The notes beneath the pieces are model-generated. The model had not been told where the DNA came from, ran no database searches, and saw only the letters and a list, made by a program, of their open reading frames with translations. Shown here piece after piece: positions 2,450 to 21,716 of a DNA stretch of 64,000 nt. The DNA is from an uncultured Kiritimatiellota bacterium (GTDB lineage Bacteria > Verrucomicrobiota > Kiritimatiellia > RFP12 > DVOR01). How positions within the stretch are numbered: the stretch's first letter is position 1; each line of letters starts with the position of its first letter. The translations under genes and the position numbers were made by a program. The stretch covers positions 11,372 through 75,371 of the forward strand of contig CALXMW010000007.1 in NCBI GenBank assembly GCA_944389585.1, written 5' to 3'.

Positions 2450-2518
2450 CGTTCTTTTCCTTCGCTTGGTTTGTCGCGCGCTTGCCGCGCGTCCGATTCA
2501 CGATTCGCGATTCACGGC

Positions 2519-2950: not shown

Positions 2951-3311
2951 GGTGTGTGTGCTCCCTTCGGTCGCACGGTGAATCGTGAATCGTGAATCGC
3001 GAATCGTTGGTGGGTGGGGCTGCGCCCCACGCCCCTTCGGACGGCCCGCGCACCATTCGCGATTCGCGATTCGCCATTCGCGGGTTGCCCCGCCAGAGGC
3101 CCGTGGAGGGCTTCGTGGGGCTTTGGGGTGAAATCCTGCGCCGAAAATCTTTGCAACGATTCTGCGGGCTTGCAGGGGCCTTTGCAACGGCATTGCGCGG
3201 CGGGGCCGCGCGGAAGCTTGGAAGTTTGGAGACTTGGAAGGTTGGTTTTGGCTTCGCCGGTCGCCCTTCGGGCGCGCCAAGCCTCCAAGCCTCCAAACTT
3301 CCCGACGGCCG

Positions 3312-4220: not shown

Positions 4221-4273
4221 GGCGATGTCCTTTCTGGAAGTTTGGAAGTTTTGAGGCTTGGTTGCCTAGGGCC

Positions 4274-5245
4274 TCAGAGGAGGCCGCGCTCGATGGCGGC
4301 GCAGCGCTCCTCGGGGGTGCGGCAGGCGGCCAGGGGGTTGGCGGGCTCGGCGGGGCGGCGGGCGGCGGCGGCGTTGCAGACGGGGCGCGCGGCGGGCTTG
4401 GGCGCGGGGGCGGGGGACTTGAGGCAGGCCAGGGTGGCCTTGACGGCGTCGCGGTTGGTCACGTAGAGGCGCTTGAAGGCCTCCTTGTTGGCGATCTTGT
4501 CCTTGTTTTCCTCGGCGGCGGCCTCGGCCTCGGCGTTGAGGGCGGCCTCCTGCGCCTCGGCGGCGGCCTGGGCGAGGCCATCGACGGCCTGGAGGATGGC
4601 GGCGTCGTCGGCGTCGGGGCCGAGGCCGAGGATCTCGAGGAGGCGCGCGCGGAGGTCGGGCGCGGCGGGGGTGGGTTCGGTGGTGTCGGGTTCCATGGTG
4701 GTTCCTTTGTTGGGGGTGAAAACGTGAATCGTGAATCGCGAATCGCGAATCGTCTCGGGGTGGGGCTTCGCCCCACGCCCCTGCGGCTTGCCTGTCGCGG
4801 CACGCGGTTCCATTCGCGTGTTCAAGACCGGGCGGACGGGCAGATTGGGCTTGTTGGTGAGGCCGACGGAGACGAGGCGGCAGGGGCGGTCGTGAGAGTC
4901 GAGCTCCCAGACGGGGGAGAGGAAGCGGAGGCGGCGGTTGGAGACGGCGTCGGCCCCCGCGTCGGTGAAGCGGAAGGTGGCCAGCAACCCCTTGGCGGGG
5001 TCGACGCGCACGCGCTGGACCCAGGCCGCCGCCTCGGTGTCGCCCCCCGTCTCGGCGTGGTGCTCGAAGTCGACGAGGACCTCGGGGCGGAAGTTGGCCA
5101 CGACGGCCTCGAAGGCGGCGCGGTCGCAGCGCTGGATCACGCGCTCATCCCCGCGCAGGCCGGGGAAGGCGCCGTAGGGGGAGAGCTGCACCTCCAGCTC
5201 GTCGCCGGGTCGGATGGTCTTGGGAAGGGTCTGCGTCGCGTTCAT
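4274..5245 (-). CDS. Mu-like prophage I protein (head protease plus C-terminal scaffold)
   Basis: LVDFEH, AAAWV, RFLSPV and SVGLTNKP motifs of the Mu gpI family. In-frame internal ATG at 4696 with AAAGGA RBS. Confidence 0.88.
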   Translation of the reverse strand: MNATQTLPKTIRPGDELEVQLSPYGAFPGLRGDERVIQRCDRAAFEAVVANFRPEVLVDFEHHAETGGDTEAAAWVQRVRVDPAKGLLATFRFTDAGADAVSNRRLRFLSPVWELDSHDRPCRLVSVGLTNKPNLPVRPVLNTRMEPRAATGKPQGRGAKPHPETIRDSRFTIHVFTPNKGTTMEPDTTEPTPAAPDLRARLLEILGLGPDADDAAILQAVDGLAQAAAEAQEAALNAEAEAAAEENKDKIANKEAFKRLYVTNRDAVKATLACLKSPAPAPKPAARPVCNAAAARRPAEPANPLAACRTPEERCAAIERGLL

Positions 5246-5260
5246 GGCCCTAGTATCGCA
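5246..5260 (-). promoter_or_regulatory. Candidate late promoter, extended -10 (TGcGATACT), leaderless
   Basis: Hexamer ends 6 nt before ATG 5245, no Shine-Dalgarno, just downstream of a terminator. Confidence 0.5.
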
Positions 5261-5311
5261 CGGGGGGCGGGGGCGCTGAAGGGCAAGTCTTGCAACTTTG
5301 CCAAATCTGGC

Positions 5312-5345
5312 AAAAAACGAGCCGCCCGAAGGCGGCCCGTTTTTT
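5312..5345. terminator. Bidirectional intrinsic terminator ending the early operon
   Basis: AAAAAACGAGCCGCC-CGAA-GGCGGCCCGTTTTTT. Confidence 0.8.
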
Positions 5346-5473
5346 GGAAGCTTGGAAGCTTGGATGTTTGGAAGTTTGGAGGAGCGGAGGAGGTTGGGGC
5401 CCGGGCTGTCGCCTGCGGCGACGATGTGGCCGAAGGGGTGTGGGGCGGAGCCCCACCGCCTAGGGCCAAGCCT

Positions 5474-5791
5474 CTAAGCCTCCAAACTTCCCGCCTTCGC
5501 CTCGCCGAGGCGGACGCGGATGCCGGAGAGCTCGGCGGAGAGGCGGTAGGCGCGGTCGGTACCTTTGGCGATGAAGGCGCGGTGGGCCTTGAGGGCGTCG
5601 AGGAGCTCGGCCTCCTTGGCGAGTTGCCTGGCGCGCCAGTCGCGGTAAGCGTCGAGGCGCTGCTCGATTTCCTTGGCGCGCGCCAGGAGGCGTTGACGCT
5701 CTGCGCTGTCGCGCGGCGAATCGTGAATGGCGAATCGTGAATCGTTCGCCCCTTGCGGGGCGTCGGAGCTGTTCTGGCCGGATACTTGCAT
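5474..5791 (-). CDS. Small coiled-coil phage protein
   Basis: MQVSGQNSS..., GAGGG RBS, last gene of the early operon. Confidence 0.55.
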   Translation of the reverse strand: MQVSGQNSSDAPQGANDSRFAIHDSPRDSAERQRLLARAKEIEQRLDAYRDWRARQLAKEAELLDALKAHRAFIAKGTDRAYRLSAELSGIRVRLGEAKAGSLEA

Positions 5792-5883
5792 GGTTTTCCC
5801 TCGGTTTGCCTGTCGCGCGCTTGTCGCGCGCACGATTCGCGATTCACGATTCACCATTCACGGCGGCGTCAGCCGCCTGCCCG

Positions 5884-6435
5884 TCAGGCCTCCTCCGTCT
5901 TGGGCTCGCAGTAGAAGCGCTCGGTCTGGGCGACGCGCAGGCCGCAGGCGGCGAGGTCCTCGGCGTCGAGCGCCTTGCCGGCGACGGCGGCCAGGAGCGC
6001 GGCCTTGTCGAGCTCCTCGGTGGTGCGGACGTATTGGGGGAGGCGCTCCTTGACCATTTGGAGGGCCTGCTCGGCCTTGACGCGGGGGCGGAGGCGGACG
6101 GCGGGGTTGCCGAGGCGCCAGCCGATGGTGCCGTGGGTGAGGACGAGGCTGCGCTTCTCGCCGAAGGCGGCCTTGTGGAGCTCGGCCCAGGAGGCAATCT
6201 CCTCGGCGAGGGCCTTTTGGGCGGCGTCGAGGGCGTCGAGGTCGGCGGCGTAGCGGTCGCGGACGGCCTTGAGCTCGGCGTCCATCTTGGCGGTGAGGGC
6301 GCGGCGGCGGGCGTCCTTGAGGGCCAGCTCGCCCATCAAACGCTCGACGTCGTCGAGCGTTTGGGGCGAATCGTGAATCGCGAATCGCGAATCGTTGCGC
6401 CCCTTCGGGGCGTCAGGTGTGGGTTTCGTTTTCAT
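5884..6435 (-). CDS. gam: Host-nuclease inhibitor Gam
   Basis: Coiled coil followed by HGTIGWR, YVRTTEELDK and FYCEP, the Mu Gam pattern. Confidence 0.88.
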   Translation of the reverse strand: MKTKPTPDAPKGRNDSRFAIHDSPQTLDDVERLMGELALKDARRRALTAKMDAELKAVRDRYAADLDALDAAQKALAEEIASWAELHKAAFGEKRSLVLTHGTIGWRLGNPAVRLRPRVKAEQALQMVKERLPQYVRTTEELDKAALLAAVAGKALDAEDLAACGLRVAQTERFYCEPKTEEA

Positions 6436-6502
6436 GGTGGGATGTCCTTTCTGGAAGTTGGGGGTGTTTGTCGCGCGGCTTGCCGCGCGGGCGATTCGCG
6501 AT

Positions 6503-7162
6503 TCACGATTCGCGATTCACGAGCCTGACGCGGAAGAGGCGGGGAAGGTCCTTGCCGGGGGCGCGCCGGGGCGTCTTGAGCAGCGCGTTCACCGTCAGCA
6601 CGTAGCGGGCGTGGAGGTCGAAGGCCAGGCGCATGGGCCCGCGGGAGCCGTCGGGGAGCTCCTCCCACTTGGCGAAGGGGACGCGGCGGAGGAGGCGGCG
6701 GCGGTGGGTGTCGAGCATCTGGAAGAGGCGGTGGAGGCGGGGGAGGTCGAGGTCGAGCCACCACTCCTCGCCCTCGGCGTGGAGGGCGTCGCGCCAGCCG
6801 GCCTGCGCGAGGACGCCGCGGAGGTAGGGGATGGCGCCGGGGGTCCATTGCTCGGCGAGGTCGGGGAGGGCTTGGGCGATCTCGAAGCACTGGCGGGCGC
6901 ATGCCTCGGCCATCCTGGCCAGGCGGCGGCCCTCGGCCGTTCCCCACCGCATGGCCTCGCCGTGGCTCTCGGCCAGGCGGCTGACGTGGGCCATCAGGCG
7001 GTCGAAGTCGGCGCCGGAGCCGACGGCCTTGAGGCTGGGGACGCCGCAGGCCTCGCGGACGATCTCGTGGCGCCAGGCCTCGCGTTCGCCGGGCGGGATG
7101 CACTGCCGGTCGCACGCCTGTTGGAAGACCTTGAAAAAGGCGACTCTCTGTTTGTCCGTCAT
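6503..7162 (-). CDS. GemA/gp16-like phage regulatory protein
   Basis: N-terminal WRHEIVREACGVPSLK..DFDRLM resembles GemA-like proteins. AAAGGAG RBS. Stop codon is supplied by a heptamer array. Confidence 0.45.
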   Translation of the reverse strand: MTDKQRVAFFKVFQQACDRQCIPPGEREAWRHEIVREACGVPSLKAVGSGADFDRLMAHVSRLAESHGEAMRWGTAEGRRLARMAEACARQCFEIAQALPDLAEQWTPGAIPYLRGVLAQAGWRDALHAEGEEWWLDLDLPRLHRLFQMLDTHRRRLLRRVPFAKWEELPDGSRGPMRLAFDLHARYVLTVNALLKTPRRAPGKDLPRLFRVRLVNRES

Positions 7163-7301
7163 GGTTCACTCCTTTCAGTCGTTCGCGCGAATCGTGAATC
7201 GTGAATCGTCTCGGGGTGGGGCTGCGCCCCACGCCCCCTCGTTGCTTCAATCCTCATTGTGGTATCCTTTTGCATGGTTTGATTCAGCATTTGGAGAAGA
7301 G

Positions 7302-7652
7302 ATGAAAACGTACCGTGACTTAGAGGCTTGGCAGGTCGGGATGGACTTGGTGGAGGCTGTCTATCACCTGGCCCGGCGACTTCCCGCCGAGGAACGTTAT
7401 GCGCTGTCGGACCAGTTGCGCCGGGCGGCGGTCTCGGTGCCGGCCAACATCGCGGAGGGCTACGCCCGGAACTCCCCGGCGGAGTTTCGCCGATTCGTGC
7501 TGATTGCGGCGGGGTCGTGCACGGAGGTGCAGACGCACCTGCTGATTTGCGAGCGCGTCGGGTTGCAAACGCGTGAGCAGACGCGCCCCGCGCTGTTGCT
7601 GACCGACCGGCTTGGCAGAATGCTCCATAAGTTGGCCTCCTCGTTGGGCTGA
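7302..7652 (+). CDS. Four-helix-bundle protein (23S rRNA IVP / TIGR02436, Avd-like fold)
   Basis: MKTYRDLEAWQ...EERYALSDQLRRAAVSVPANIAEG...FRRFVLIAAGS..EVQT signature. GGAGA RBS and TGgTATCCT -10 at 7260-7268. Confidence 0.92.
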   Translation: MKTYRDLEAWQVGMDLVEAVYHLARRLPAEERYALSDQLRRAAVSVPANIAEGYARNSPAEFRRFVLIAAGSCTEVQTHLLICERVGLQTREQTRPALLLTDRLGRMLHKLASSLG

Positions 7653-7697
7653 CGATTCGCGATTCACGATTCACGATTCACGGAGTTGGTGCGCGCG

Positions 7698-8783
7698 TTA
7701 GCGCGTCACCAACTCATACGCGCGGAGGACGTGGGGCCAGGCGAGGGGCTCGCCGCGCTTGGCGGCGAGGTTGCCGCCCAGGGCGAGGAGCTTGGTGTAG
7801 CGGTTGAGGCGCATATGGCGGAAGGTGGGGAGGGCCTCGGGCGGGGGCTCGGGCAGGCCGTAGGCCGCGGCCACCTTGAGGAGATCGCCCCACGGCAGGT
7901 CGTCGGGGAGCACCAGGCGCTTGATGCACCGCTCGCTGAACTGCTCCAGCCACCCCTTGAGGGGGCCCTGGATGAGGTCGTGGTCCAGCGCGCGGGTGCC
8001 GCAGACGACGAGCCCGCAGCCGGAGAGGTCGTGGAGCTCGCGGATATACTCCATGATCTTCATGGCGGCATGGCGGCCCGAGGAGATGGCGAGCTGGTGG
8101 AGCTCGTCGACAATGAGGAGGGACTTGGAATCGAGCGCCTGTGCGACGCGGCGGCGGAGTTGCTCGGGGGTGGCGCGGGTGGTGACGCCGCAGGCCTCGG
8201 CCAGGGCGAAGAGGGCGGTGCGGAAGCCCGGCGCCGCGGGCATCCGCACGTAGCGGACGACGTACTCCGAGCGCCGCTTGTATTCCAGCAACGCCGTGGT
8301 CTTGCCGAGCTGACTGGGGCCGACGACGATGGCGGGCATCTGGTGGATCAGCGCCAGGTCGCAGGTCTGGCGGATTTTCTCCCAGACGCTCGTCTCCACG
8401 AAGGCGGCGCTCGCCAGCTTGGCGCGCTCGGCGCGGAGGTGGCGGTATTGCCGGATCTTCTCGATGACGTTCTGCCAGGAGCCCTGATAGGCGCCGTTGA
8501 GGACGCGGCTGACGGTGGAGGCGTTGTAGCCGATGCGGCGCCCGGCCTCGGCGTAGCTGAGGCCCTCGGCGCGCATCTCGCCGATGAGCCAGAGCACCTG
8601 CGCGCGGTCGTCGCCGGTGAGGGTGCCCTCCTCCACCAGCGGCGCGAGCGCCCGGCTCACGGTGTCCGCGCTCATGAGGGCGAGGCCCGTGGGCGGCTTC
8701 GCCGCCGGTGAATCGTGAATCGCGAATCGCGAATCGTCCCGCCCCTGCGGGGCGACGGATTGCGCTGTGTGTGTCGTGTCCAT
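7698..8783 (-). CDS. MuB-like transposition AAA+ ATPase
   Basis: N-terminal HTH, Walker A GPSQLGKT, Walker B LLIVDE, directly after the transposase. Confidence 0.9.
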   Translation of the reverse strand: MDTTHTAQSVAPQGRDDSRFAIHDSPAAKPPTGLALMSADTVSRALAPLVEEGTLTGDDRAQVLWLIGEMRAEGLSYAEAGRRIGYNASTVSRVLNGAYQGSWQNVIEKIRQYRHLRAERAKLASAAFVETSVWEKIRQTCDLALIHQMPAIVVGPSQLGKTTALLEYKRRSEYVVRYVRMPAAPGFRTALFALAEACGVTTRATPEQLRRRVAQALDSKSLLIVDELHQLAISSGRHAAMKIMEYIRELHDLSGCGLVVCGTRALDHDLIQGPLKGWLEQFSERCIKRLVLPDDLPWGDLLKVAAAYGLPEPPPEALPTFRHMRLNRYTKLLALGGNLAAKRGEPLAWPHVLRAYELVTR

Positions 8784-8798
8784 TGTGTACTCCTTGGG

Positions 8799-11057
8799 TT
8801 AGATCAAATCGTCCATGGTGGCGCCGGCGAGGCCGTGGCCGGAAGCTTGGAGGCTGGCCGTGGAAGGTTTGGCGCGTTGCGCCTGCACGGGAAGGTTGGA
8901 GGCTTGGCTTTCGGGGCGGGGGTCGGCCCGTCGCCCGTCAGGGCGCATCGATTCGCGATTCACGATTCGCGATTCACCCTGCGCCTCCGCGAGGAGGTGC
9001 TTGTTCCACGCCACATCGGCCTGGTGCTCCGCGGCGCGGCGCTCGGCCCAGGGGAGGATCTCGCGGCGCTCGAGGGCCTGGATCTTGGCGCGGATCTTGA
9101 GGTTGGCCGCCACGCCCTCGGGGTCGTCCTGGTGGCTGGGGGCGAGGACGGGGGCGAGGCCGAGGTAGCGCCAGGAGCCGTCCTTGGCGGGCTCGGCGAC
9201 GTAGGCGACGAGCGGTTCGAGGGGGTTGACCCAGACCAGCGCCTCCTGGCCGCGGCGGAGGAGCCGCTCCTCGCCCTCGGGGGTCCGGACGACGCCGGCG
9301 ACCGTGGCGGCGAAGTCGATGGCGGGGTCCTTGACGCGGAGCTCCACCTTGGCGGAGACGGTGGCGCGCATGGCGAGGCCCTCGCCGAGGATGAGGGGCA
9401 TGAAGGCGCGGTCGGCGCGGATGACGTCGCCCTCCCGCCGCTCCCACGCCTCGGCGGGGGAGAGGCGGCGGGCGCGGGTGAGGGCGGGGTCGGCCTCGAG
9501 GGCGGCGCGGACGGCGGCGGCGACGGCGGGGGGCAGCCCCTCGAGGTCGGCCAGCGGCCGCCAGGGCTCGCGGGGGCCCAACCGCCAGGCGGTCTCCACG
9601 AAGCCCTGTTCCGCCCACCCCTCGAGGGCGTGGTCGGTGCGGCCGTTGAGCTCCGCCACGGCCTCGGCCACCAGCGCGGCATAGTCCTGGAAGGGGAGGT
9701 AGGGCCAGCGGAGGCGGGCGGGGAGGTCGGGGTCGCGGGCGGCGAGGGCGCGGCAGGCGCGGAGGAGGGCGGCCTCGGCCTTGTCGCGGGCGTAGAGGTC
9801 CTCGGGCGCGGCGTCGCGGTCCTTGCCGACCTGCCCGGGCACGTCGGCCAGCAAATCGTGGAGGAGGCTGTGGTTGCCTTCGAGCCGCGCCTTGAAGCGG
9901 AAGTTGCCGCGGGGGCGGCCCTCCCAGAGGCCCTGCGCGAGAGGCTTGGAGAGCTTGCCGCCGGCCAGGAAGCGGACCTTCCCGCCTGTCGCCGCTTCCA
10001 CGGCGGCGGCGAGGCGCTTGTCGGCGGCGGCGGTGCCGTGCTCGCCCATCACCGTGGCCCCGCCGGGGGCGTAGCCCTGGACGATGAGCCAATAACCGAT
10101 GAGGTAGGGCATCATGCGGGCCATGACGACCTCGCGCGTGCCGTCGTCGCGGCGCCGGATGGGCTTGAGGAGGTAGCTGCGGAAGCCGGTGGCCACGTCG
10201 AGCAGCGCGAGCTCGACGCACCGCTCGGCGGGGGCGCCGTCGGCCGCGCGGACCTTGACGTCGTGCCACATGTCGTCGATCTCGACGATCTGCCCGCGCA
10301 GGAGCCCGGCGCGCGTGCGGGGGACGGAGGGGAGGAGGGCGCTCGCCGCCAGCGTCCCCTGCCGCGCGGCGGTGAGCGCCCACTTGGAGGGGAGCAGCCG
10401 CATGAGGTTGGCCTTGCTCCACCCCGCGGGGAGCAGCACGCCCGCGCGGTAGGGGCACACGGCCGGCGCCTCGCGCCCGGGGAACTCCGCCGCGTAGAGC
10501 TGCCGCCACGTGCCCACCCCGGGGATGGCCTCGCCCGCGCGGAGGTGGGCGAGGAGCTTATCCCAGGCGCGGCTGGAGACGCGCTGATTCTGGAGGACCA
10601 GGCCGCGCCAGAACTGGACGAAGGCGGCGTTGGCGGCGACCCCCGCGGGGGCGGCGTGGGCGGCCGCGGGCACCAGCGCCTCCCACCCGCGGCCGGGACG
10701 CTCGGCCTCGCGCCGACGCCACGCCGCGGCCTTGCGGTAAAGACTCTTCAGGCTCAGGCCGCGGAGCCCCGCGTGCTCGGCGGCGAGGCGTGCGGCGACG
10801 AGCGCGCGCCCCTCGGGCGGGGCGGCGAGGAAGGCGTGCATCACCCCCACCCATTCCCGCAGCTCCCCCAGCTGACGCGCCGTCAGACGCCCCGCCAGCC
10901 GCGCCCAGTCCTCGGCGGGGATGGCGCAGGGCGGCTGCGCCGCCGCGTGAATCGTGAATCGCGAATCGTGAATCGCTTCGGGGTGGGGCTCCGCCCCACA
11001 CCCCTTCGTCCCCTCGACCCCGAGGGCGACCAAGCCGTTTGCGTTCACTGGTTCCAT
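8799..11057 (-). CDS. MuA-like transposase
   Basis: Start MEPVNA with AAGGAAAGG RBS. Integrase-core motifs EIDDMWHD, LLDVATG, EHG and KARLEG. Paired with a B-like ATPase. Confidence 0.87.
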   Translation of the reverse strand: MEPVNANGLVALGVEGTKGCGAEPHPEAIHDSRFTIHAAAQPPCAIPAEDWARLAGRLTARQLGELREWVGVMHAFLAAPPEGRALVAARLAAEHAGLRGLSLKSLYRKAAAWRRREAERPGRGWEALVPAAAHAAPAGVAANAAFVQFWRGLVLQNQRVSSRAWDKLLAHLRAGEAIPGVGTWRQLYAAEFPGREAPAVCPYRAGVLLPAGWSKANLMRLLPSKWALTAARQGTLAASALLPSVPRTRAGLLRGQIVEIDDMWHDVKVRAADGAPAERCVELALLDVATGFRSYLLKPIRRRDDGTREVVMARMMPYLIGYWLIVQGYAPGGATVMGEHGTAAADKRLAAAVEAATGGKVRFLAGGKLSKPLAQGLWEGRPRGNFRFKARLEGNHSLLHDLLADVPGQVGKDRDAAPEDLYARDKAEAALLRACRALAARDPDLPARLRWPYLPFQDYAALVAEAVAELNGRTDHALEGWAEQGFVETAWRLGPREPWRPLADLEGLPPAVAAAVRAALEADPALTRARRLSPAEAWERREGDVIRADRAFMPLILGEGLAMRATVSAKVELRVKDPAIDFAATVAGVVRTPEGEERLLRRGQEALVWVNPLEPLVAYVAEPAKDGSWRYLGLAPVLAPSHQDDPEGVAANLKIRAKIQALERREILPWAERRAAEHQADVAWNKHLLAEAQGESRIVNRESMRPDGRRADPRPESQASNLPVQAQRAKPSTASLQASGHGLAGATMDDLI

Positions 11058-11136
11058 GTTGCCTTTCCTTCGCTTGCTTTGTCGCGCGGCCCGCCGCGCG
11101 CCCGATTCACGATTCACGATTCGCGATTCACGGCGT

Positions 11137-11949
11137 TCACGCATCCGCGTGGACGACCTCATGGAGGAGGTCGATGGCGTCGCGGAGGGTGTGGAGGTCG
11201 GTGGGGGTGAGGGCGGCGTGGCGGCGCTGGCGCACGATGAGGTCGGAGAGGCGGTCGAGGGGCTCGGAGAGCTCCTTCCACGCGATCTCGGGACTCGCAT
11301 CGAGGGCGGCGGCGAAGTCCTTCGCCTTCCGCCCCGCGCCCTCGCGCTTCCCGCCCAGGCGGAGGATGGACCGCTGACTGCGGCCCGCGAGAAACTCGCG
11401 GACCTTGTCAGGGTCGGGTGAATCGTGAATCGTGAATCGCGAATCGTTGGACGCCCCCTGCGGGGCGTCGGGCAAGGCTGTGGCCGCGCCGCCCTCCGCC
11501 TCGTCGGCCAAGGCCAGCGCCGCGACCGTCTTCTCCGCCACCGCGAGAAAACGGCAAGCGGTCTTGTAGTTGATTTCAGGGCAGTGGATGGCCAACCACC
11601 CTTTCAGCCCCATCCCGCGGTTCCAGCCGTGCATGTCATCGAAGCTTTTCCCCGCAGTCTCACGTGCGAGAACGCGGGAGGAGCCCTCTATTTGCAAGGG
11701 TTCGGCGGTTTGCCCGTCGCCCGTCAGGGCGTACGATTCACGATTCGCGATTCGCGATTCACCGGCGGCCGTCTCGGCCGCCTCGGCGTCTTCGAGGCGC
11801 TCTTTCACGGCGCGGAGCATCATGCCGAATTGGTAGGCCTCGTAGAGGCCGTCGAGGGCCTTTTGGTACTGCCGGGTCAGCATCGCCACGTCCTCGGCGG
11901 TGGGCTCGAGGGATTGGGGCTGCAGGGTCATTGCAAGGGTGTTGTCCAT
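11137..11949 (-). CDS. DUF3102-like phage protein with in-frame repeat insertions
   Basis: G..LRAVKERL...LKGWL...INYKTACRFL pattern, AAAGGA RBS. Confidence 0.55.
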   Translation of the reverse strand: MDNTLAMTLQPQSLEPTAEDVAMLTRQYQKALDGLYEAYQFGMMLRAVKERLEDAEAAETAAGESRIANRESYALTGDGQTAEPLQIEGSSRVLARETAGKSFDDMHGWNRGMGLKGWLAIHCPEINYKTACRFLAVAEKTVAALALADEAEGGAATALPDAPQGASNDSRFTIHDSPDPDKVREFLAGRSQRSILRLGGKREGAGRKAKDFAAALDASPEIAWKELSEPLDRLSDLIVRQRRHAALTPTDLHTLRDAIDLLHEVVHADA

Positions 11950-12107
11950 CTTTGTGTCCTTTTGGAAGTTTGGAGGCTTGGAAGTTAGCCGTGGAAGGTT
12001 TGGCGCTTTGCGCCTGCACGGGAGGCTTGGTTTCTCCGTCGCCCCGCAGGGGCGCACGATTCACGATTCGCGATTCACGATTCACGGGGCGTCTAGGCGC
12101 CTCGCGC

Positions 12108-12374
12108 CTAGACGCCCTCCGCCATATGGCGCGCCAGGGCGACGGCCGACTCGCGGGGGATTTTCCAGAAGGTCTTTTTGCCGGTGCCGGCGTTGAGGTT
12201 CACGGCCTCGAGGCGGCCTTCCTCGATCCACTCGGTGACGGTGGTGGTGGAGGCGCAGAAGGCCAACGCCACGTCCGCCACGCTCAGGAAGTCCTGCGCC
12301 GGCAGGCGCCGGAGCACCGTCCGCAGCCAGGCGGGCGGCGGGGCGAAGAGGTCGCCTTGGATGGGGCAGGCCAT
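12108..12374 (-). CDS. Excisionase/MerR-like HTH DNA-binding protein
   Basis: LSVADVA...TVTEWIEEGRLEA...WKIPRES pattern, AAGGAG RBS. Confidence 0.75.
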   Translation of the reverse strand: MACPIQGDLFAPPPAWLRTVLRRLPAQDFLSVADVALAFCASTTTVTEWIEEGRLEAVNLNAGTGKKTFWKIPRESAVALARHMAEGV

Positions 12375-12400
12375 GGGGCGTCTCCTTTGCGGCCTGGCGC

Positions 12401-12562
12401 TCAGCGCAGGACGGCGTCGGCCTCGGCCTCGTCGCCATGGAGCCAAAACCACAGCGCGTCGGCCAGCCGCTTGCGGCGACTGCCCGCAGGCAGCCCCTTC
12501 CATGCCCACAGCAGCCGCGACAGCGGCCCCGGGCGGAACGATTCCTCGTGAAATGCTCTCAT
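12401..12562 (-). CDS. Small hypothetical phage protein
   Basis: 53 aa, strong AAAGGAGG RBS, in the early operon. Confidence 0.55.
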   Translation of the reverse strand: MRAFHEESFRPGPLSRLLWAWKGLPAGSRRKRLADALWFWLHGDEAEADAVLR

Positions 12563-12594
12563 GGTGTCCTCCTTTGGTTTGGGTTCTCTGAAAA

Positions 12595-12822
12595 TCAGCG
12601 GGCCAGGTGGCGGTCGAGCGCCGCCCGCGCCTCCTGGCTGATGGAATGGCCCTCCGCACGCGCCCGGCGGTCGAGCGCCGCGTAGGTCTCCGGCGAGACC
12701 AGCAGGTTCACCCGCACGGTCCCCTCGGGAAACTGGCACCGCCGCCCGCGGGGGCGCCCGGCCATCGGCAGGGGGGCGGGGGCGGACAACGCGCGGAAAC
12801 GCGCCAGACCCACGCGGTTCAT
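12595..12822 (-). CDS. Ribbon-helix-helix (CopG/Arc-like) protein
   Basis: VRVNLLVSPETYAALDRRARAEGHSISQEARAAL, ATGA overlap with the upstream gene. Confidence 0.7.
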   Translation of the reverse strand: MNRVGLARFRALSAPAPLPMAGRPRGRRCQFPEGTVRVNLLVSPETYAALDRRARAEGHSISQEARAALDRHLAR

Positions 12823-13025
12823 CGCGCCGCCTCCGCCGCGCGCGCCTTCGCCGCCTGGCGCCCGGGCCGCCAGCCGCGCGCCAAGGCCGCCGCCTCGATG
12901 CGCAGGCTCCGCTTCTGCCCTGTCAGCACCCGGCTCACCGTCCCGGGGTTCACCCCGAGCTCCTCCGCCAGGGCGTTCACCCCGGCCCACGTCTCGCGCC
13001 GCCGCAACCGGCTCTTTGTCTGCAT
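12819..13025 (-). CDS. Ner/Cro-like HTH regulator
   Basis: VNALAEELGVNPGTVSRVLTG, divergent from the repressor and first gene of the early operon. Confidence 0.75.
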   Translation of the reverse strand: MQTKSRLRRRETWAGVNALAEELGVNPGTVSRVLTGQKRSLRIEAAALARGWRPGRQAAKARAAEAAR

Positions 13026-13083
13026 GCCTCTGTCCCTTCTTTGGTATACTGTCCGTGTAGGAGGGCAACAGTTGCCCTAGAAC

Positions 13084-13152
13084 ATGAAAGAATGTAGCAC
13101 GAAATCTTACATCAGGCAAGGAAAATCTTTCATTATGGACGAAAATCTTTCA
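13084..13152. promoter_or_regulatory. Candidate operator array in the lysis-lysogeny switch
   Basis: GAAA(A)TCTT copies at 13101, 13121 and 13141 (20-bp period) plus an imperfect inverted copy at 13084, between divergent HTH genes. Confidence 0.6.
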
Positions 13153-13515
13153 CTCCGCGAGATTAGGGAACGTCTGGGGCTTACACAACAAGAACTAGCG
13201 GACGCGCTTGGAATGGCGCGTGCCTATATTTCAGCAGTCGAAAGAGGCGCCAGCCCATTTTCTGACAAGTTTCGAAAGAAAGTTGAAAATCTTTCATTCA
13301 ATGGTAGGGCAGTTTCATTGCGTGACAATCACGGGGCGCTGGCGGTGGGGTCTCCGGGTGCGCGTGTGCACAACACGGCGACGCCAACCCCTTCGGGAGG
13401 CGAGCCGCCGGCCTGGGCGGAGGCGCTGCGGGACGAATTGCGGGGGGAGTTGGCACGGCTGCGCGGACAGCTGGCGGACATCCAAGCGCTGTTGGTGAAG
13501 CTGGCTGGGAAGTGA
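13135..13515 (+). CDS. XRE-family prophage repressor
   Basis: LREIRERLGLTQQELADALGMARAYISAVERG HTH with C-terminal coiled coil. No obvious S24 peptidase domain. Confidence 0.85.
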   Translation: MDENLSLREIRERLGLTQQELADALGMARAYISAVERGASPFSDKFRKKVENLSFNGRAVSLRDNHGALAVGSPGARVHNTATPTPSGGEPPAWAEALRDELRGELARLRGQLADIQALLVKLAGK

Positions 13516-13527
13516 GGAGATGGCGCT

Positions 13528-14256
13528 ATGAAAATGTTCGTAACACCCGAAGAGTTTCGCATTTTACGAAAGATGAAAGAGGAGAAGTTTGAGGAAGTGT
13601 ATTTGTGGTGCAGTATTTGTTCCGAATTCCTAGCTGCTACACCAACAGAACGAAAGAAGGTTGCCGCGTCTCTGATTCAGAGATATAGCGGAAAAGGTCT
13701 AAGAGGAATGTCCCTCAAATCCATTTACCGAAAGGCAAATATATATCGCCAAAAGGGATGGAAGGGATTTGTACGGAAAGAAAAAGATATCCTCTCTCTT
13801 TTATTTTCTGCGCAAGAGAATATAAGTACCAATGATGAGTTTCTTAAATACTGGAAAATGTTATGTGTAGAGCATAAGGGTGTAGCGACTCATGCATTCA
13901 AATCCCTCATTGAGAGTCTTGTCAAGGGGGACCAAATCCCTGGCTATGGAACGTGGCGTGACATCTATCTTGATGAACATCCCTCTTGCGTAATTCCTGA
14001 GACTTGCCCATATACCTCTGCGAAGCCTCCGATAGGATGGAGTTATGCAAACTTATCTCGATATAAAGTCAAAGATGGTCAAGTGCATGTGTCTCTTCAG
14101 GAAATCTTTGATACGGATTACATCAGAGAATATTTATATGCCGAGATTGACAGTTTGTATCTACAGTTGGAAGAGATACGAGCACGTATTAGAAAGATGA
14201 ATGAGCTATCGTTTTTAGAGGACAATCACTCACCGCCGCCGACTGGCGAGGCTTGA
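13528..14256 (+). CDS. Stand-alone homolog of the transposase N-terminal domain
   Basis: Shares FLAA, GLRG.SLKS.YRKA, IPG.GTWR..Y, CPY and P.GWS.ANL.R with the 8799-11057 product. No catalytic core. AT-rich. Confidence 0.85.
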   Translation: MKMFVTPEEFRILRKMKEEKFEEVYLWCSICSEFLAATPTERKKVAASLIQRYSGKGLRGMSLKSIYRKANIYRQKGWKGFVRKEKDILSLLFSAQENISTNDEFLKYWKMLCVEHKGVATHAFKSLIESLVKGDQIPGYGTWRDIYLDEHPSCVIPETCPYTSAKPPIGWSYANLSRYKVKDGQVHVSLQEIFDTDYIREYLYAEIDSLYLQLEEIRARIRKMNELSFLEDNHSPPPTGEA

Positions 14257-14310
14257 CTCTGCGTATTCGCAGGTGCTGGGCGTGCTGTGGCACAAACTGT
14301 GAGGGTTGCG

Positions 14311-14742
14311 ATGAAAAGCTTGTGCGGCGTTTTGGCGGCGCTTCTGCTCTTGGGGTGCGAGGCGCCCACTGTCCCCTCGCCCACCGCCGTCTCCCCGGCG
14401 CCTGCGGCGGCGGATGCCGCCCCGTCCTCCGCGGAGGGGGTGTTCGCCGCCGCGATCCGCGGCCGGCGGCCGGTGGCCTTTGTGTACAACGGGGTTGCGC
14501 GGGTGGCGCACCCGCACCGCCTGGGCCCCAGCGCGGCGGGGAACGGGAAGGTCCTCGTGCGTGCGTGGGAGGTGTCGCGCGGGGGCGAGGCGACGGGGAC
14601 GTGGAAGCTCTACGACGTGGCCAAGATCTCCGCCCCGCGCCTCCTGCCCGGCGCGCCCTTCGCCCCCGCCCCCGGCTACACCCCCGCCGACCGCGCGATC
14701 CCCGCGCCGTCGGCGGAGGTGCCCGCGCCGCAGGCGCGGTAA
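14311..14742 (+). CDS. Lipoprotein with WYL-like domain
   Basis: Lipobox LLLLG-C and Pro/Ala linker, then AIRGRRPVAFVYNG..RVAHPHRLG...VRAW...WKLYDVAKI...F....GY.P.D. Confidence 0.65.
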   Translation: MKSLCGVLAALLLLGCEAPTVPSPTAVSPAPAAADAAPSSAEGVFAAAIRGRRPVAFVYNGVARVAHPHRLGPSAAGNGKVLVRAWEVSRGGEATGTWKLYDVAKISAPRLLPGAPFAPAPGYTPADRAIPAPSAEVPAPQAR

Positions 14743-14907
14743 ATGGTGAGGGGTAAATGGTAAATGGTGAGTGGCGCGTGGTTTTTGAGAAAGGAAGAGA
14801 CGATGGGCAAATCGCATGCAGCGCCCGGGCCGAAGGGCGGGGGAGGATAACTGTTGCCCTGGCGGATGGGATGTGAGATAATGAAGTGAGTGAGAAAGGA
14901 CGTGCAT

Positions 14908-15096
14908 ATGAAAGGAAAGTTACAAACGGTTCCCATAAGAAAACCGCAGGCGCAGATGGAACGTATCCGCCAAATTATGCATCTCCAAGAGCGGATGCCG
15001 ACGGGGGTCTTTATGACTCGAAACGAGGCGCTGCGCTCGATTGGTATTAAAACCACTGGAGAATCTTCTTACGGATTCTGTATAATCACAAACTAA
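14908..15096 (+). CDS. Small hypothetical protein
   Basis: 62 aa, AAAGGA RBS, precedes the peptidase gene. Confidence 0.5.
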   Translation: MKGKLQTVPIRKPQAQMERIRQIMHLQERMPTGVFMTRNEALRSIGIKTTGESSYGFCIITN

Positions 15097-15120
15097 CGGC
15101 CATCCCAACAAGGTAAGACA

Positions 15121-16008
15121 ATGCCATCAACCGTAGAGATTCAGCAGGAGGCAATGCCTCGTGGAAGTGCCAAGGATGTATTGGCTCGCTACATGCAGGC
15201 TTTTGTCGATCGGACAAAACGAAATCTGATTCTTTATTATTCAGGGTTTCTATTTGCCCCAAATGAGAACGTCAGTATCCAAGAAGAGGATATGGAAGGT
15301 TTCATGGCGGCATTGTATAAAATGGATAAGTCCAGTGGGCTTGACCTTTTTCTGCACACGCCTGGAGGTTCCGTTTCGGCAACGGAAGGCATCGGAAATT
15401 ATCTGAAATCCGTGTTCAACAACAACATCAATTGTTACGTGCCGCACATGGCAATGTCCTGTGGAACGTTATTGGCGATGGCGTGCCGAACGATTTATAT
15501 GGGAAAACATTCCTGTTTAGGGCCGATTGACCCAGCCATCGGGATGTATCGGACGGATGCCGTTGTCGAGGAATTCAATACCGCCAAAACTGACATCGCG
15601 CAGGATCCCAACCTTTCGCTGTTGTGGCAACCAATTTTAAGCAAATATCCAATCACATTATTGGGGGAATGCAAAAAGGCAACAGAACTCGCAAAAATCG
15701 TGTCTGAGAAATGGCTCACGGACAATATGCTGGCGCAAGCGCCAGATGCGAGACTGCGTCTCAATCGCATCTTATCGTTGTTTGCTTCTCATCAAAACAC
15801 CAAGGCACATGACCGCCATATCTCCGCATCTGAATGCTTAAAGATTGGCCTTGAGGTCAAAATGATAGAAGAAGACCCGGACCTTCAGGACGCTGTGTTA
15901 AGCGTTCATCATGCCGCCACACTCTTCATGAAGCAAAATAATCTTGTAAGTATGGTGACCAATCCTCGGTGTACAGGACTTTTTCGCAATGCAAACCCGT
16001 CAAAATGA
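15121..16008 (+). CDS. SDH/ClpP-class serine peptidase (S49-like)
   Basis: LHTPGGS, AMSCGTLLA, LGPIDP and HDRHI motifs. AT-rich moron-like gene. Confidence 0.85.
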   Translation: MPSTVEIQQEAMPRGSAKDVLARYMQAFVDRTKRNLILYYSGFLFAPNENVSIQEEDMEGFMAALYKMDKSSGLDLFLHTPGGSVSATEGIGNYLKSVFNNNINCYVPHMAMSCGTLLAMACRTIYMGKHSCLGPIDPAIGMYRTDAVVEEFNTAKTDIAQDPNLSLLWQPILSKYPITLLGECKKATELAKIVSEKWLTDNMLAQAPDARLRLNRILSLFASHQNTKAHDRHISASECLKIGLEVKMIEEDPDLQDAVLSVHHAATLFMKQNNLVSMVTNPRCTGLFRNANPSK

Positions 16009-16032
16009 ATGTGTAAAACAACCATTCAGTAT

Positions 16033-16062
16033 GCCCGCCTGTTCGGCGGGCTCTTTTATTTT
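16033..16062 (+). terminator. Intrinsic terminator
   Basis: GCCCGCC-TGTTC-GGCGGGC followed by TCTTTTATTTT. Confidence 0.65.
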
Positions 16063-16147
16063 CGGAGAGTTTGAGGCGGATGTCGGCAAATTGGATGGGA
16101 GGGCTCGCCTCGGGGAGCTCGAACGGAAACTCGCGGATGAGCAGCCC

Positions 16148-16336
16148 TCAGCGAAGGTGAGGCGGGCCAGGAAGTGGCTCGGCCTGAAGCTGAGAGATTT
16201 GATTTTTGCCGCCCTCGGAGCCATTGTCACAAAGTTGATCGAGTTTCTTTTTTAGTTCGGCGTATTGCATGGCGAGCGTCAGCACCGCTCCCAAAAGCGC
16301 CATAAGCAGGTAATGATCGACGGTTTGGCGGTCCAT
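16148..16336 (-). CDS. Small single-TM phage protein
   Basis: AAGGAG RBS, hydrophobic YLLMALLGAVLTLAM. Confidence 0.5.
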   Translation of the reverse strand: MDRQTVDHYLLMALLGAVLTLAMQYAELKKKLDQLCDNGSEGGKNQISQLQAEPLPGPPHLR

Positions 16337-16459
16337 GGCTTGCGTTCTCCTTGGGTTTGTGGTTTACTGTGGGTGTTGGCGGTAACTGCCGGGGACTAGT
16401 TCATGAACGCCTCGGCCAGTAGAGCCACGAGACTAACAGTGGTATCACCTGCCTCCTAG

Positions 16460-16490
16460 AAAGCCCGCCTTTATGGTGGGCTTTCACTTT
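16460..16490. terminator. Hairpin/terminator after the portal gene
   Basis: AAAGCCCGCC-TTTAT-GGTGGGCTTT next to the portal stop codon. Confidence 0.5.
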
Positions 16491-18746
16491 TCAGTTCTCG
16501 CCTTTCGTATGATACCTTCCGCCGACCTTCCGGCGCTCAACCTCTTTGTCGCTCAATTCCCCATAGTCCGTGATCAGCAGGCGGCCGGTGCGGTGTTTGG
16601 TGAGCACGGCGACGGAATTGCCGTGGATGAGGTAGAGCTTGGAGCGGGAGCGGTCGTGCTTGTAGGCCTCGCCTTCTTGGAGGGTGTCGACGAGGGTGTC
16701 CTTGGCCTTGGGGTGTTTGGCGAGGATGTGGGCGAGGCCATGGCCGCCGGCGAAGGCGTTGTCTTTGTTGCCGGGCTCGCCGTAGTCGATACCAATCCAG
16801 CCGGTGTCTTGGCGGTAAAGGGCTTTGGGCACGGAGCCTCCGCGCTTGGCCATGAGGTGGGTGACGACGCTGCGGGCACGCGCGGCGTTGGCCTTGGGGT
16901 CGGCGGCAAGCTTGGTCTCATCGAAGGTGCCGTGGGCGTCGCGCTTGGAGGGTGTCTCACCTTCGCGTTGGTGGGTGCCGGGGTGATTGGTCTCGGAGAA
17001 CTTGCCGTTTTCGTCGCGCTTGTATTCCCGGGGGGCGCGGTTGGAGGCGGCTGTCGCCGCCGGTGAATCGTAAATCGTGAATCGCGAATCGTCTCGGGGT
17101 GGGGCTTCGCCCCACGCCCCTTCGGTTTGCCTGTCGCGGGACGCGGCACGATTCGCGATTCGCGATTCACCATTCGCGCTTTCCGCGGCGAAGGTGTCGT
17201 CGAGGAGGGTGCGGATCTGGGCGGCGAGGGCGGGGTCTTCGGGGAGAAGCTCGGGGAGGCGCGCGGCGAGGGCGCGGGCGGCCTCGGGGGAGGGGTCGGA
17301 GAGGAGGCTTTGCAGGGCCTCGGCAAGGGGAGCGCAGTCGCTTTGCAATGCCTCTGCGAGGGCGGCGACCTGCGTCGCCGGAGAATCGTGAATCGTGAAT
17401 CGCGAATCGTCTCGGGGTGGGGCTTTGCCCCACGCCCCTTCGGTCTGACCGTCGCGGGACGCGGCACGATTCGCGATTAGCGATTCACGATTCGCGAAGG
17501 GGAGCGCGCCGAAGGCGGGCACCCCGCCCGCTCCCGCGGGCTCCAGCGCATACCCGGTGCGTTCCTGGAGCTCGGCCTGGGTGACGCGGTAGCCGGCCTG
17601 GACGGCTTTGGCGGCGAGGTCGAAGACCTCGGCGGGGCCGGGGGCGGGCTCGGTCTCGAAGTCGAAGGCGGCGAGGTGGGGGCGGCCGGGGAAGGCGCGG
17701 TCGAGGAGGGTGTCGGTGACGGTGCGGTTGAGGGCGGTGGCGACGGCGGCGGCGTCGCGGCGGACGATGGTGCGCCAGGTCTCCTCGTGGGCGTCGGTGG
17801 CGCCCTGGCCGATGCCGGTGGCGCCGGTGAGGGAGGTGAGCATGCCGCCGGTGGCCATGAGGACGATGAGGCGCTGCTGGTGATCGAGGAAGGCGGTGAA
17901 GGGGTCGGTGCCGCGGGCCTCGTGGGCGTAGGAGACGAGGGAGCCGGCGGGGAGGGCGCCGGAGCCGCCATCGGCGACCTGGGTGGCGGCGGCACAGTAG
18001 TCGGAGACGCGGGCGGGGTCCATGTCGGGCGGCATGGTGATGATGACGGGGGGGATGCCGTAGCGCTCGAGGAAGCGGCCCCAGGCCTTTTCGCCTAGTG
18101 CGTTGCGCAGGAAGATGGGCATGGCGGGATAGTCGATGTGGCGGGTGCGCAACAGGGTGACGATCTCGCCTTCGGGGACGGGGTCGAGGCTGCCGAAGTC
18201 GAGGGTCTCGTCGGCGGAGGGGTTCCAGTGCCAGAGGCCGGTGACGAGGTCGCGGCAGAGGTTCCAGGCGTTGAGGAGCTCGAAGCCGGCGAGGCCCAGG
18301 CCGTCGTCGCTCCAGAGGGGACGGACGTGGGCGTGGCCGCGGAAGAAGGCGGAGGCGAGGCGCTCGATGGCGGGGAAGAGGTTGCGCTCCTCGGCCTGGC
18401 CGTAGACCTGCTCAAGGAAGGCGGCCTGCTCGTCGGCCAAGGCTTGGTCGAAGCCTTTGGCGCGGGCGGCGGCCTTGGGGCGGATGGTCCAATCGAGGTC
18501 GACCAGCGCGGAGGCGCGGCGCTCGGCGCAGATCATGAGCGTGGGGTCGCTCTGCTCGAGGTTCTCGTAGATCCACTGGAGGCGGACGTCGTTGCCGCGG
18601 CGGGCGGCGTCGAAGATCATCTGGGCGCGGCGGATGGTGAGCCCGCGCAGGGGGTTGTAGCTCTCGAGGAAGGCGTTGGCCTCGCGGTCGTGGCGGGTAC
18701 GCACCGCGGTGGGCAGGACGACGGGTCTGGCGGGTTTGGTTTTCAT
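16491..18746 (-). CDS. Mu gp29-like portal (DUF935) with C-terminal extension and PBECR-like domain
   Basis: WGRFLERYGIP portal motif in the first ~410 aa. Tail carries RDENGKF and GGHGLAHILAKH. Follows the terminase. Confidence 0.85.
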   Translation of the reverse strand: MKTKPARPVVLPTAVRTRHDREANAFLESYNPLRGLTIRRAQMIFDAARRGNDVRLQWIYENLEQSDPTLMICAERRASALVDLDWTIRPKAAARAKGFDQALADEQAAFLEQVYGQAEERNLFPAIERLASAFFRGHAHVRPLWSDDGLGLAGFELLNAWNLCRDLVTGLWHWNPSADETLDFGSLDPVPEGEIVTLLRTRHIDYPAMPIFLRNALGEKAWGRFLERYGIPPVIITMPPDMDPARVSDYCAAATQVADGGSGALPAGSLVSYAHEARGTDPFTAFLDHQQRLIVLMATGGMLTSLTGATGIGQGATDAHEETWRTIVRRDAAAVATALNRTVTDTLLDRAFPGRPHLAAFDFETEPAPGPAEVFDLAAKAVQAGYRVTQAELQERTGYALEPAGAGGVPAFGALPFANRESLIANRAASRDGQTEGAWGKAPPRDDSRFTIHDSPATQVAALAEALQSDCAPLAEALQSLLSDPSPEAARALAARLPELLPEDPALAAQIRTLLDDTFAAESANGESRIANRAASRDRQTEGAWGEAPPRDDSRFTIYDSPAATAASNRAPREYKRDENGKFSETNHPGTHQREGETPSKRDAHGTFDETKLAADPKANAARARSVVTHLMAKRGGSVPKALYRQDTGWIGIDYGEPGNKDNAFAGGHGLAHILAKHPKAKDTLVDTLQEGEAYKHDRSRSKLYLIHGNSVAVLTKHRTGRLLITDYGELSDKEVERRKVGGRYHTKGEN

Positions 18747-21166: not shown

Positions 21167-21380
21167 CCGACACTCCTTTCCTGAATGACGCCAGTATCCC
21201 ACCTTCCCCCGCCCCCGCCAAGGCCAACTCCCGCAACTCCCGCAACTTTCTCAAATCTTTGATAAACGCCCCATTTCCCGCCTTCCCATTCTCATTTCCC
21301 CCTCCGCCCCAAAATCCCCACAAGTCCTTCCAATTCCGCCCTCTTCCGCCCTCTTCCCCATTCTCGCCGCCCTTGAACTA

Positions 21381-21716
21381 GGCCAGGGTAATCATGTGGT
21401 CACCATCACGGGTTCTTGGAACTCGGGCGCTAGGCGTTGGGATGTCGAAATGACGATTGACGGGAATCCCGTTGCGTGGAGCCAAAACGAGGGCCAACAG
21501 CAGATTCGCCCTGAAAGCAACGCGCTTACGCTGACCTTCCATTCCCAGGAGAATGCTTGGTCGCTCAAGGAAGTCGCTGTTTATGACGGCTTGCTTTCTC
21601 AGGAGCAGATTGATTATCTCAGCGAAAAAGAGGTTGCCGTCCTCCCCGAGCCGACGGCGTTGGCGCTGCTCGCCCTGGGCGTGGCCGGCGTGGCCCTCCG
21701 CCGCCGCGCGGCCTAA
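21381..21716 (+). pseudogene. 5'-truncated PEP-CTERM protein gene
   Basis: Ends PEPTALALLALGVAGVALRRRAA but has no RBS or signal peptide. Matches only the C-terminal half of paralog 49980-50651. Confidence 0.75.

Follow-up and report, generated by a model that had tools for sequence, protein, structure and literature searches.

Results

A transposase-like gene behind the repressor of a Mu-like prophage

The DNA analysed here is a window of 64,000 nucleotides (nt) from the genome of an uncultured Kiritimatiellota bacterium (contig CALXMW010000007.1), and its first 21.4 kb are part of a Mu-like (transposable) prophage. Our subject is ORF242, an open reading frame (ORF) on the plus strand of this prophage (13528-14256) which starts with ATG and encodes 242 amino acids (aa) followed by a stop codon. 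The protein resembles an N-terminal part of the MuA-like transposase A of the same prophage, and its gene lies directly behind the repressor candidate c (13084-13515, plus strand). The c gene probably has its true start at ATG 13135, is divergent from the early operon and encodes a protein with an Xre/HTH_3 N-terminus (PF01381 HTH_3, E 3.3e-11, aa 24-58; HTH, helix-turn-helix) and a helical C-terminus. It ends with TGA at 13513-13515, leaving a spacer of 12 nt (13516-13527, plus strand), as stated in the first-pass annotation of this DNA, with GGAG at 13516-13519, 8 nt before the ATG of ORF242. By this gap and the GGAG sequence ORF242 is placed for co-expression with the repressor. Terminator-like sites were detected neither in this spacer nor immediately downstream of ORF242, the first strong ones being at 16033 and 16459. 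The gene is indeed AT-rich, with a GC content by codon position of 0.47/0.37/0.41 compared with ~0.7 in the flanking phage genes; GC at codon position 3 reaches ~0.9 in the neighbouring phage genes, and the genome as a whole has ~70% GC.

The same annotation had drawn on the homology of the Mu repressor to the first of the MuA N-terminal domains. Here, c is an Xre/HTH_3 protein without significant similarity to the transposase and not a protein of the Mu c type, and the analogy to Mu c and to the MuA subdomain I-alpha is therefore not literally transferable. Two sister prophages (L030 and L031) encode HTH_3 proteins at the same position as c. The repressor gene itself is a mosaic in composition, with 43-47% GC in the HTH half (to ~13310) and 65-72% in the C-terminal half, and the last ~10 residues of an ORF242 relative, P0002, resemble the C-terminal end of the repressor (VKLAGK); both observations hint at recombination at shared junction sequences.

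The ner-like gene, the operator region, c and ORF242 together form an immunity block (12800-14290) that is near-identical across species. In 100-nt bins these ~1.5 kb are 98-100% identical in three other genomes (G047, G076 and G091). The flanks are less alike (77-94%): beyond 14300 the bins fall to 77-82%, and on the left side they are at 88-96% or below. Since the block is near-identical and identity drops right after ORF242, the gene is part of an exchangeable immunity cassette. Within the 5′ part of c we found three exact direct copies of a 14-nt motif, candidate protein-binding sites, at 13121, 13141 and 13285 (span 13121-13298, plus strand), where 0.13 matches were expected in the window. 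The first two copies are sites at the DNA level because they lie 20 nt apart in different reading frames, and the repeats accompany the gene in all four genomes. A perfect 7-1-7 palindrome at 13062-13076 is a likely operator; it lies in the 58 nt that separate c from the divergent ner-like gene.

The stretch is present in four metatranscriptome libraries from two studies, and in three of the four, contigs span the junction of c and ORF242 (X17 record 5, X19 record 20 and X20 record 26), which is compatible with co-transcription of the two genes. In X18 and X20 the bins covering c and ORF242 are deeper than most prophage bins; the runs were preselected and contig depth cannot rank genes, so that nothing is concluded from this difference.

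Homology to the end-binding subdomains of MuA

In a direct BLASTP comparison, aa 11-178 of ORF242 align with aa 134-301 of A (61 of 176 positions identical, 35%, E 9e-25), which is significant and agrees with the description of ORF242 as an intact, stand-alone copy of an N-terminal transposase domain. The seven motifs said to be shared with A, namely FLAA, GLRG(M/L)SLKS(I/L)YRKA, GW, N..F...W..L, G..IPG.GTWR..Y..E.P, CPY and P.GWS.ANL.R, all fall within this alignment and keep their order. Similarity ends at ~aa 181, before the catalytic core, and an alignment with seven transposases and MuA revealed no counterpart of the DDE core (domain II) or of domain III past ~aa 181-197. ORF242 is collinear with the first ~180 residues of the ~700-aa transposases of this family. 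It is a separate gene, 2.2 kb from A on the opposite strand, and falls into a separate clade with a support of 1.0.

An exhaustive HMMER search of 1.84 billion cluster representatives retrieved 130 relatives; those outside ORF242's own cluster are ~700-aa proteins or fragments thereof, and in full-length proteins the match covers residues ~5-182. As the module begins at aa ~5 of these proteins, the family has no room for I-alpha. We built a profile, A1, from ORF242 and 63 relatives and compared it with MuA (record AF083977) by hhalign. The alignment (probability 97.8%, E 1.2e-12) places aa 13-~197 of ORF242 on MuA residues 96-~250, with aa 13-84 on 96-167 and aa 85-~197 on 168-~250. When used in hmmsearch against the PDB, A1 matched the Mu transpososome structure 4fcy (E 1.9e-13; first stretch, profile positions 18-126 on MuA 100-207), while a small profile of four stand-alone sequences alone gave no match. 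According to published work, MuA I-beta (aa 77-168) and I-gamma (aa 178-242) jointly recognise the Mu end sites and I-alpha (aa 1-76) binds the enhancer (PMC3362531). By profile homology, the transposase-derived DNA-binding module of ORF242 (13528-14070, plus strand) is the predicted equivalent of I-beta and I-gamma, the end-binding subdomains, and not of I-alpha. The analogy to the MuA N-terminus drawn in the first-pass annotation therefore stands for the end-binding domains; it fails for the enhancer-binding I-alpha, the winged helix of the Mu c family, since the alignment starts only at MuA residue 96.

ORF242 has no family match in Pfam, PHROGs, NCBIfam or PADLOC, and the resident transposase itself matches only phrog_310. 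PF09039 gave no match in the whole genome, but none in the control genomes either.

An AlphaFold2 model calculated on the same alignment is all-helical with a mean predicted local distance difference test (pLDDT) score of 88.1. Compared by VIA-align with 48,161 PDB chains, it has MuA at rank 1 (4fcy_B, Z 6.4, 120 residues, root-mean-square deviation (rmsd) 12.1, model residues 6-180 on MuA 89-228), so the structural check suggested earlier does return MuA as the top match, although with a middling Z only. It is followed by the type V-K TnsB (Z 5.6), a nuclear magnetic resonance structure of MuA I-beta (2ezl, Z 5.1, rmsd 3.5 over 75 residues) and Tn7 TnsB (Z 5.0). Re-ranking of the Foldseek list put N-terminal domains of ShCAST TnsB on top (Z 5.6-6.3), and RGS-like bundles reached Z 4-5 on aa 4-96 of the model. 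We take the relationship to MuA as proven by the profile homology, with the fold as additional support.

A conserved, predicted C-terminal helix in place of the catalytic core

The end of similarity at ~aa 181 falls into a loop of the model (aa 180-182) that follows a helix (H173-179), and ordered helices continue beyond it. As anticipated in the first-pass annotation, the place of the core is taken by a coiled-coil-like segment: DSSP assigns a single long helix, a putative coiled coil, to aa 197-232 of the model (14116-14223, plus strand). Judged by eye, hydrophobic residues occur in it at 199, 203, 207, 210, 214, 217, 221, 224, 227 and 230, a heptad-like spacing of 3-4 residues over about four and a half heptads. 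In VIA-align this tail matches generic coiled coils only (Z ~4.8), and similarity between the repressor and the tail is insignificant (E 0.22). Residues 182-229 are 75-77% identical among three stand-alone lineages and hence as conserved as the DNA-binding part. Such a conserved helix appears suited to pairing and may serve in oligomerisation.

Conservation and distribution

The four copies of ORF242 differ by 2-3 of 729 nt (99.6-99.7% nt identity) in prophages that are otherwise 86-93% identical. More diverged relatives of the same architecture are P0002 (246 aa, 78%) and P0003 (239 aa, 71%), both known as protein only. The three stand-alone lineages are 70-79% identical in the DNA-binding part and have kept the tail and a length of 239-246 aa. 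The closest cluster comprises 20 sequence variants on ~100 contigs, of which 18 have 242 aa and two are fragments. In the first 181 residues, 24 columns are at least 80% conserved among the transposases, and 22 of these are retained in ORF242, the exceptions being an arginine conserved in 95% and a proline at the end of the domain. Because diverged full-length relatives keep both domain and tail, ORF242 is a maintained gene rather than debris.

A FastTree phylogeny of the module, calculated from 48 sequences and 177 columns, unites the three stand-alone proteins in a clade (support 1.0) that joins six transposases of the prophage subfamily (support 0.974), the order within this joint group having a support of 0.046. 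The stand-alone branch is about twice as long as the others (1.2-1.4 compared with 0.7-0.9 substitutions per site). Judged by its own clade and longer branch, ORF242 did not arise by a recent duplication of the resident A gene.

A match was found in 44 of 201 genomes of the order, and the stand-alone form is confined to four of one genus (G000, G047, G076 and G091). A sample of 401 genomes of the phylum yielded no further stand-alone form, and the GTDB species representatives contained the same three other genomes. No relatives were found in IMG/VR with a protein query, in JGI metagenome contigs with alignment A2, or in INPHARED phages by tblastn; IMG/VR searched with alignment A4 gave one distant transposase locus with a single module copy. 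Several other candidates for stand-alone forms were rejected. P0013, P0018, P0022, P0028, P0060, P0072, P0112 and P0124 are read as fragments, because such short matches run into the core linker and end in unrelated residues; the short frames in G118, G183, G184, G013 and G092 are located at contig ends, and for that in G339 the remainder of the gene is on another contig.

Synteny gave a divided answer. The cassette is kept in G047, G076 and G091, but the sister prophages G025 and G060 carry other genes in the position of ORF242, and in the whole set of loci fetched two copies of the module were seen only together with the cassette. In G076 the cassette is an orphan (L023, G076:C17:1-12000). 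What is present there, at 99.7% identity to the window, is c and ORF242 with a portion each of the early region and of the lipoprotein gene, joined to non-phage DNA beside the type I restriction genes hsdR/hsdM. No A-type transposase was found in the G076 assembly, which is 93% complete.

The prophage and its surroundings

The early operon, divergent from c, begins with a small ner/Cro-like HTH gene (12819-13025, minus strand; PHROG HTH DNA-binding and repressor families, E 1e-4 to 9e-3), followed on the same strand by small ribbon-helix-helix and HTH genes and a 306-aa gene. The resident transposase A is an 833-aa ORF (8799-11300, minus strand; phrog_310 transposase, E 2.2e-9) whose probable start, ATG 11057-11055, gives a protein of ~752 aa; the profile of its family matches MuA including the DDE core. 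The next gene after A encodes a MuB-like ATPase (7698-8783, minus strand; phrog_296, E 9.4e-39), and Gam (5884-6435, minus strand) precedes the head protease and the major head protein. The assembly (1.95 Mb, 26 contigs) contains one A and one ORF242, and the stretch occurs in sequencing runs that carry the labels bird and chicken gut.

Over window 1-21374 and the contig upstream of it, the gene order on the minus strand is phage end, small and large terminase, portal, plus-strand immunity and cargo block, ner/A/B/gam, head protease, major head and tail. This is odd for a Mu-like phage in that the immunity and transposition modules lie between portal and protease, and the G047 prophage has the same gene order.

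ORF242 is followed by a small GC-rich lipoprotein-like ORF (14287-14742, plus strand; lipobox LLGC, signal peptide, probable start ATG 14311) without a family match in the library scans. Its conservation is far below that of ORF242 (69% aa identity, G000 compared with G047), and it is possibly a surface exclusion factor. A variable AT-rich cargo slot then extends between the immunity block and the portal (window 14750-16260; L022 5623-7400; L029 8108-10116; L030 8609-10407). In the window it holds an SDH-type ClpP-like protease (15121-16008, plus strand; PF01972, E 4.4e-19; phrog_11747, E 1.8e-70) and an 88-aa ORF; in G047, after the lipoprotein gene, the PADLOC candidate defence pair PDC-M19A/B (DUF488). 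In the sister prophages the likewise AT-rich slot lies behind a different HTH_3 gene and contains DUF6680 in G025, and a zinc-ribbon and a Lar-like gene in G060.

One prophage end lies at ~21374 (plus strand), where homology with the G047 prophage stops; in G091, host DNA from ~21637 is found on a separate, unlinked contig. Two direct repeats of 13 nt at 21281 and 21353 (span 21281-21374, plus strand), candidate transposase-binding sites, occur only there within the prophage. A PEP-CTERM-type ORF (21396-21716) abuts this end. The sorting signal in its last ~80 nt recurs in many copies in each of the five related genomes that were searched, and the phage may have inserted into or beside a gene of this type.

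The prophage also carries a heptamer inverted-repeat element (window 2376-17493) with arms of 27-29 nt, made of GAATCGY repeated 3-4 times in tandem, and spacers of ~80-450 nt; examples are at 10945-11130, 8710-8975, 17065-17175 and 17383-17493. The 44 matches in the window are all within the prophage, the 42 kb of host DNA being free of them; genome-wide, 46 of 50 are in the prophage. Of 28 genomes of the genus, 8 contain exact matches, which lie mostly on contigs of related prophages. The arms are found at gene junctions and inside the ends of ORFs, where they read ESRIVNRES or DSRFTIHDS, and the copy upstream of A forms a long hairpin (z -7.9) with the probable start codon of A in its loop. 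The element may be MITE-like (miniature inverted-repeat transposable element) or an RNA-processing hairpin. Rfam and tRNA scans of the region were empty.

Discussion

Comparison of the sequences shows that ORF242 derives from an ancestor of the MuA-like transposases in this prophage group which lost everything past its end-binding module, gained a helical tail of ~50 aa and joined the immunity cassette. The reading that we prefer, at about an even chance of being right, is that of a non-catalytic, transposase-derived DNA-binding protein which competes in the lysogen for transposase-binding sites and serves as a second lock, in exclusion, or in both. In the lysogen, ORF242 would be made together with the Xre-type repressor, oligomerise via its long C-terminal helix and occupy transposase-binding sites. 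These sites would be the ends of the prophage itself, those of related transposable phages that arrive, or both. The full-length transposase would then be unable to assemble a transpososome at the occupied sites. One outcome would be a second lock on lysogeny beside transcriptional repression, the other the exclusion of superinfecting relatives at the step of integration or replication. With a repressor that has no relation to the transposase, the phage may obtain from ORF242 the kind of DNA binding that is built into the repressor of Mu and resembles that of the transposase. The dominant-negative end binding put forward in the first-pass annotation, with a block of transposition or of superinfection by related phages, remains plausible.

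Which ends would be the target is less clear. In the putative recognition-helix motif of I-beta, ORF242 matches the resident A by eye at 12 of 14 positions and the otherwise closer G025 transposase at 9 of 13, which points toward the resident prophage. Invaders are favoured by how far ORF242 has diverged overall, by its accessory, defence-like surroundings and by the fact that the cassette survives where no transposase is present. One could go further and consider ORF242 a portable 'anti-transposase' immunity factor, an oligomeric decoy that coats the ends of incoming phages, heteroimmune ones included, and blocks both integration and replicative transposition. As the cassette travels with the repressor and has survived the loss of the phage in G076, beside a restriction system, such a factor would represent a new class of exclusion or defence acting at transpososome assembly. 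This is an attractive but rather doubtful extension, which we offer tentatively.

Several results weigh against competition of ORF242 with the resident enzyme at the phage ends. Over the 177 columns of the module, identity is 40.6% to the G025 and G060 prophage transposases compared with 35.5% to the resident A, and the search E-values likewise favour transposases of other prophages of the genus (5e-37 compared with 9e-28). With only 35% identity, lower than to other transposases of the genus, a site specificity shared with the resident enzyme is not assured. The arginine present in 95% of the transposases, which aligns with MuA R195, is a glycine in all three stand-alone lineages, the NQR motif is changed too, and the long stand-alone branch could reflect a changed function. 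On the DNA side, the second prophage end was not found, the terminal 200 nt having no convincing inverted partner on the contig; the 14-nt motif of the cassette, present in three copies, is unlike the two 13-nt end repeats, and no clusters of it were found outside this module among 28 genomes of the genus. Concerning structure, all Z values are below 8, a range where, as the tool warns, a common helical arrangement can suffice, and Foldseek returned nothing from PDB or BFVD at E <= 0.001. Finally, the junction-spanning contigs leave co-transcription unproven because the libraries can contain DNA and a contig is not a transcript.

Some of these points would be accommodated if ORF242 were a domesticated transcription factor of the immunity switch that binds the three direct repeats and perhaps further operators, but not the ends, and regulates either c-ORF242 or the divergent early promoter. 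The 14-nt repeats are DNA-level sites in the same orientation inside the cassette, far in excess of expectation, and they accompany the gene in four genomes and cluster nowhere else. Asymmetric tandem sites would suit a monomeric MuA-type binder with two subdomains better than a palindrome-binding Xre dimer, the gene lies in the block that defines immunity specificity, and both the long branch and the change of a near-invariant arginine are compatible with retargeting. However, the repeats may equally be operators of c or of the ner-like protein, there is a separate palindrome between the divergent genes, and sister prophages run the same switch without an ORF242-like gene. We therefore consider a purely regulatory role unlikely, although it deserves to be kept in mind.

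A protein that combines an end-binding module with a long pairing helix could also act as an architectural factor or helper and not as an inhibitor, either pairing the prophage ends in lysogeny as a dimer or recruiting and positioning the transposase at induction. The Mu repressor is reported to bind the Mu ends and is likely the end-pairing protein of the prophage domain (PMC3820752), and for a transposase family without I-alpha an accessory DNA-binding factor is conceivable. The gene is, however, accessory: prophages with 65%-identical transposases (G025 and G060) have other genes at this position, two module copies occur only in cassette-bearing loci among those fetched, and G076 keeps the cassette without any transposase. 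A helper function is accordingly quite improbable. The least likely explanation, and to our minds a very improbable one, is that ORF242 is the functionless remnant of a transposase 5′ end in decay, left behind by recombination. The region is indeed an AT-rich mosaic adjoining a hot spot of variable cargo, and several short database matches to the same domain are evident fragments, but the frame of ORF242 is intact and its length constant in 18 of the 20 cluster variants, two lineages at 71-78% identity share the novel tail, and 22 of the 24 family-conserved positions are kept. The gene also has a good ribosome-binding site and is present in contigs from RNA libraries, and ordered helices follow past the end of similarity in the model.

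Coming back to ORF242 as a competitor at transposase-binding sites, its closest models are found in Mu itself. It probably has in common with MuA and TnsB two consecutive helical HTH-type subdomains in the same order, on the evidence of profile homology to MuA and of the best structural matches. It differs from MuA in that it stands alone, without DDE core, domain III or I-alpha, in having a family-specific insert (IPGYGTWR...CPY) that is absent from MuA, and in its new long C-terminal helix; the Pfam models of MuA do not detect it. The repressor of Mu is described as homologous to MuA, as binding the Mu ends with lower affinity and as a proposed pairing protein of the prophage ends (PMC3820752), and direct inhibition of transposition by it is reported in works that the reference list of that paper contains. 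Like the c repressor (Rep) of Mu and D108, ORF242 would act in lysogeny with a DNA-binding domain that is also found in the transposase of the same phage. Rep, however, has the enhancer- and operator-binding I-alpha in common with the transposase and is itself the transcriptional repressor; in the present prophage the repressor is an Xre protein without this relationship, and it is I-beta and I-gamma that are shared, on a separate gene.

A transposase derivative that only binds DNA and acts as a regulator is well known as such. InsA of IS1 outcompetes InsAB′ at both IS1 ends and represses transcription (PMC12428005). It consists of the DNA-binding region of the transposase without the catalytic domain, a composition that ORF242 shares, although at only 35% identity. 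Inhibitors of the same kind are the Tn5 inhibitor protein, OrfA of the IS3 family and the KP repressors of the P element. These proteins are made from the transposase gene itself, by frameshift, alternative start, splicing or deletion, and are therefore identical to the transposase in the shared part, whereas ORF242 is a separate paralogue encoded on the opposite strand in the immunity operon, with an added putative oligomerisation helix. With regard to position and role, a parallel exists in the transposable Pseudomonas phage Fc02, where genes co-transcribed with the repressor are reported to exclude superinfecting phages (PMC9936078). Its olg1 and gene 10 are, as described there, small accessory genes of the repressor region of a Mu-like phage that are expressed in the lysogen and exclude phages; their products are not derived from a transposase, and we claim no relation in sequence. 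Full-text searches of openly accessible literature, at the level of listings and abstracts, brought up no description of a transposable phage whose immunity region encodes a stand-alone homologue of I-beta and I-gamma. What is new here is that the derivative is a diverged paralogue with a gene of its own and an added pairing helix, and that it belongs to the immunity cassette of a phage.

The phage group to which this prophage of uncultured gut Kiritimatiellota belongs is poorly known, and standard domain libraries recognise neither its transposase nor ORF242. Mu couples immunity and transposition through a repressor and a transposase that share the enhancer-binding domain. The locus described here points to a second route to this coupling, by way of a separate gene of the immunity operon that carries the end-binding domains of the transposase. 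If this is true, the principle of the DNA-binding-only inhibitor, known for insertion sequences and eukaryotic transposons, would extend to phages, and ORF242 would be a concrete and easily tested candidate for exclusion between competing Mu-like phages. It would also be a case in which a defence-like function has arisen by truncation of a mobile element's own enzyme.

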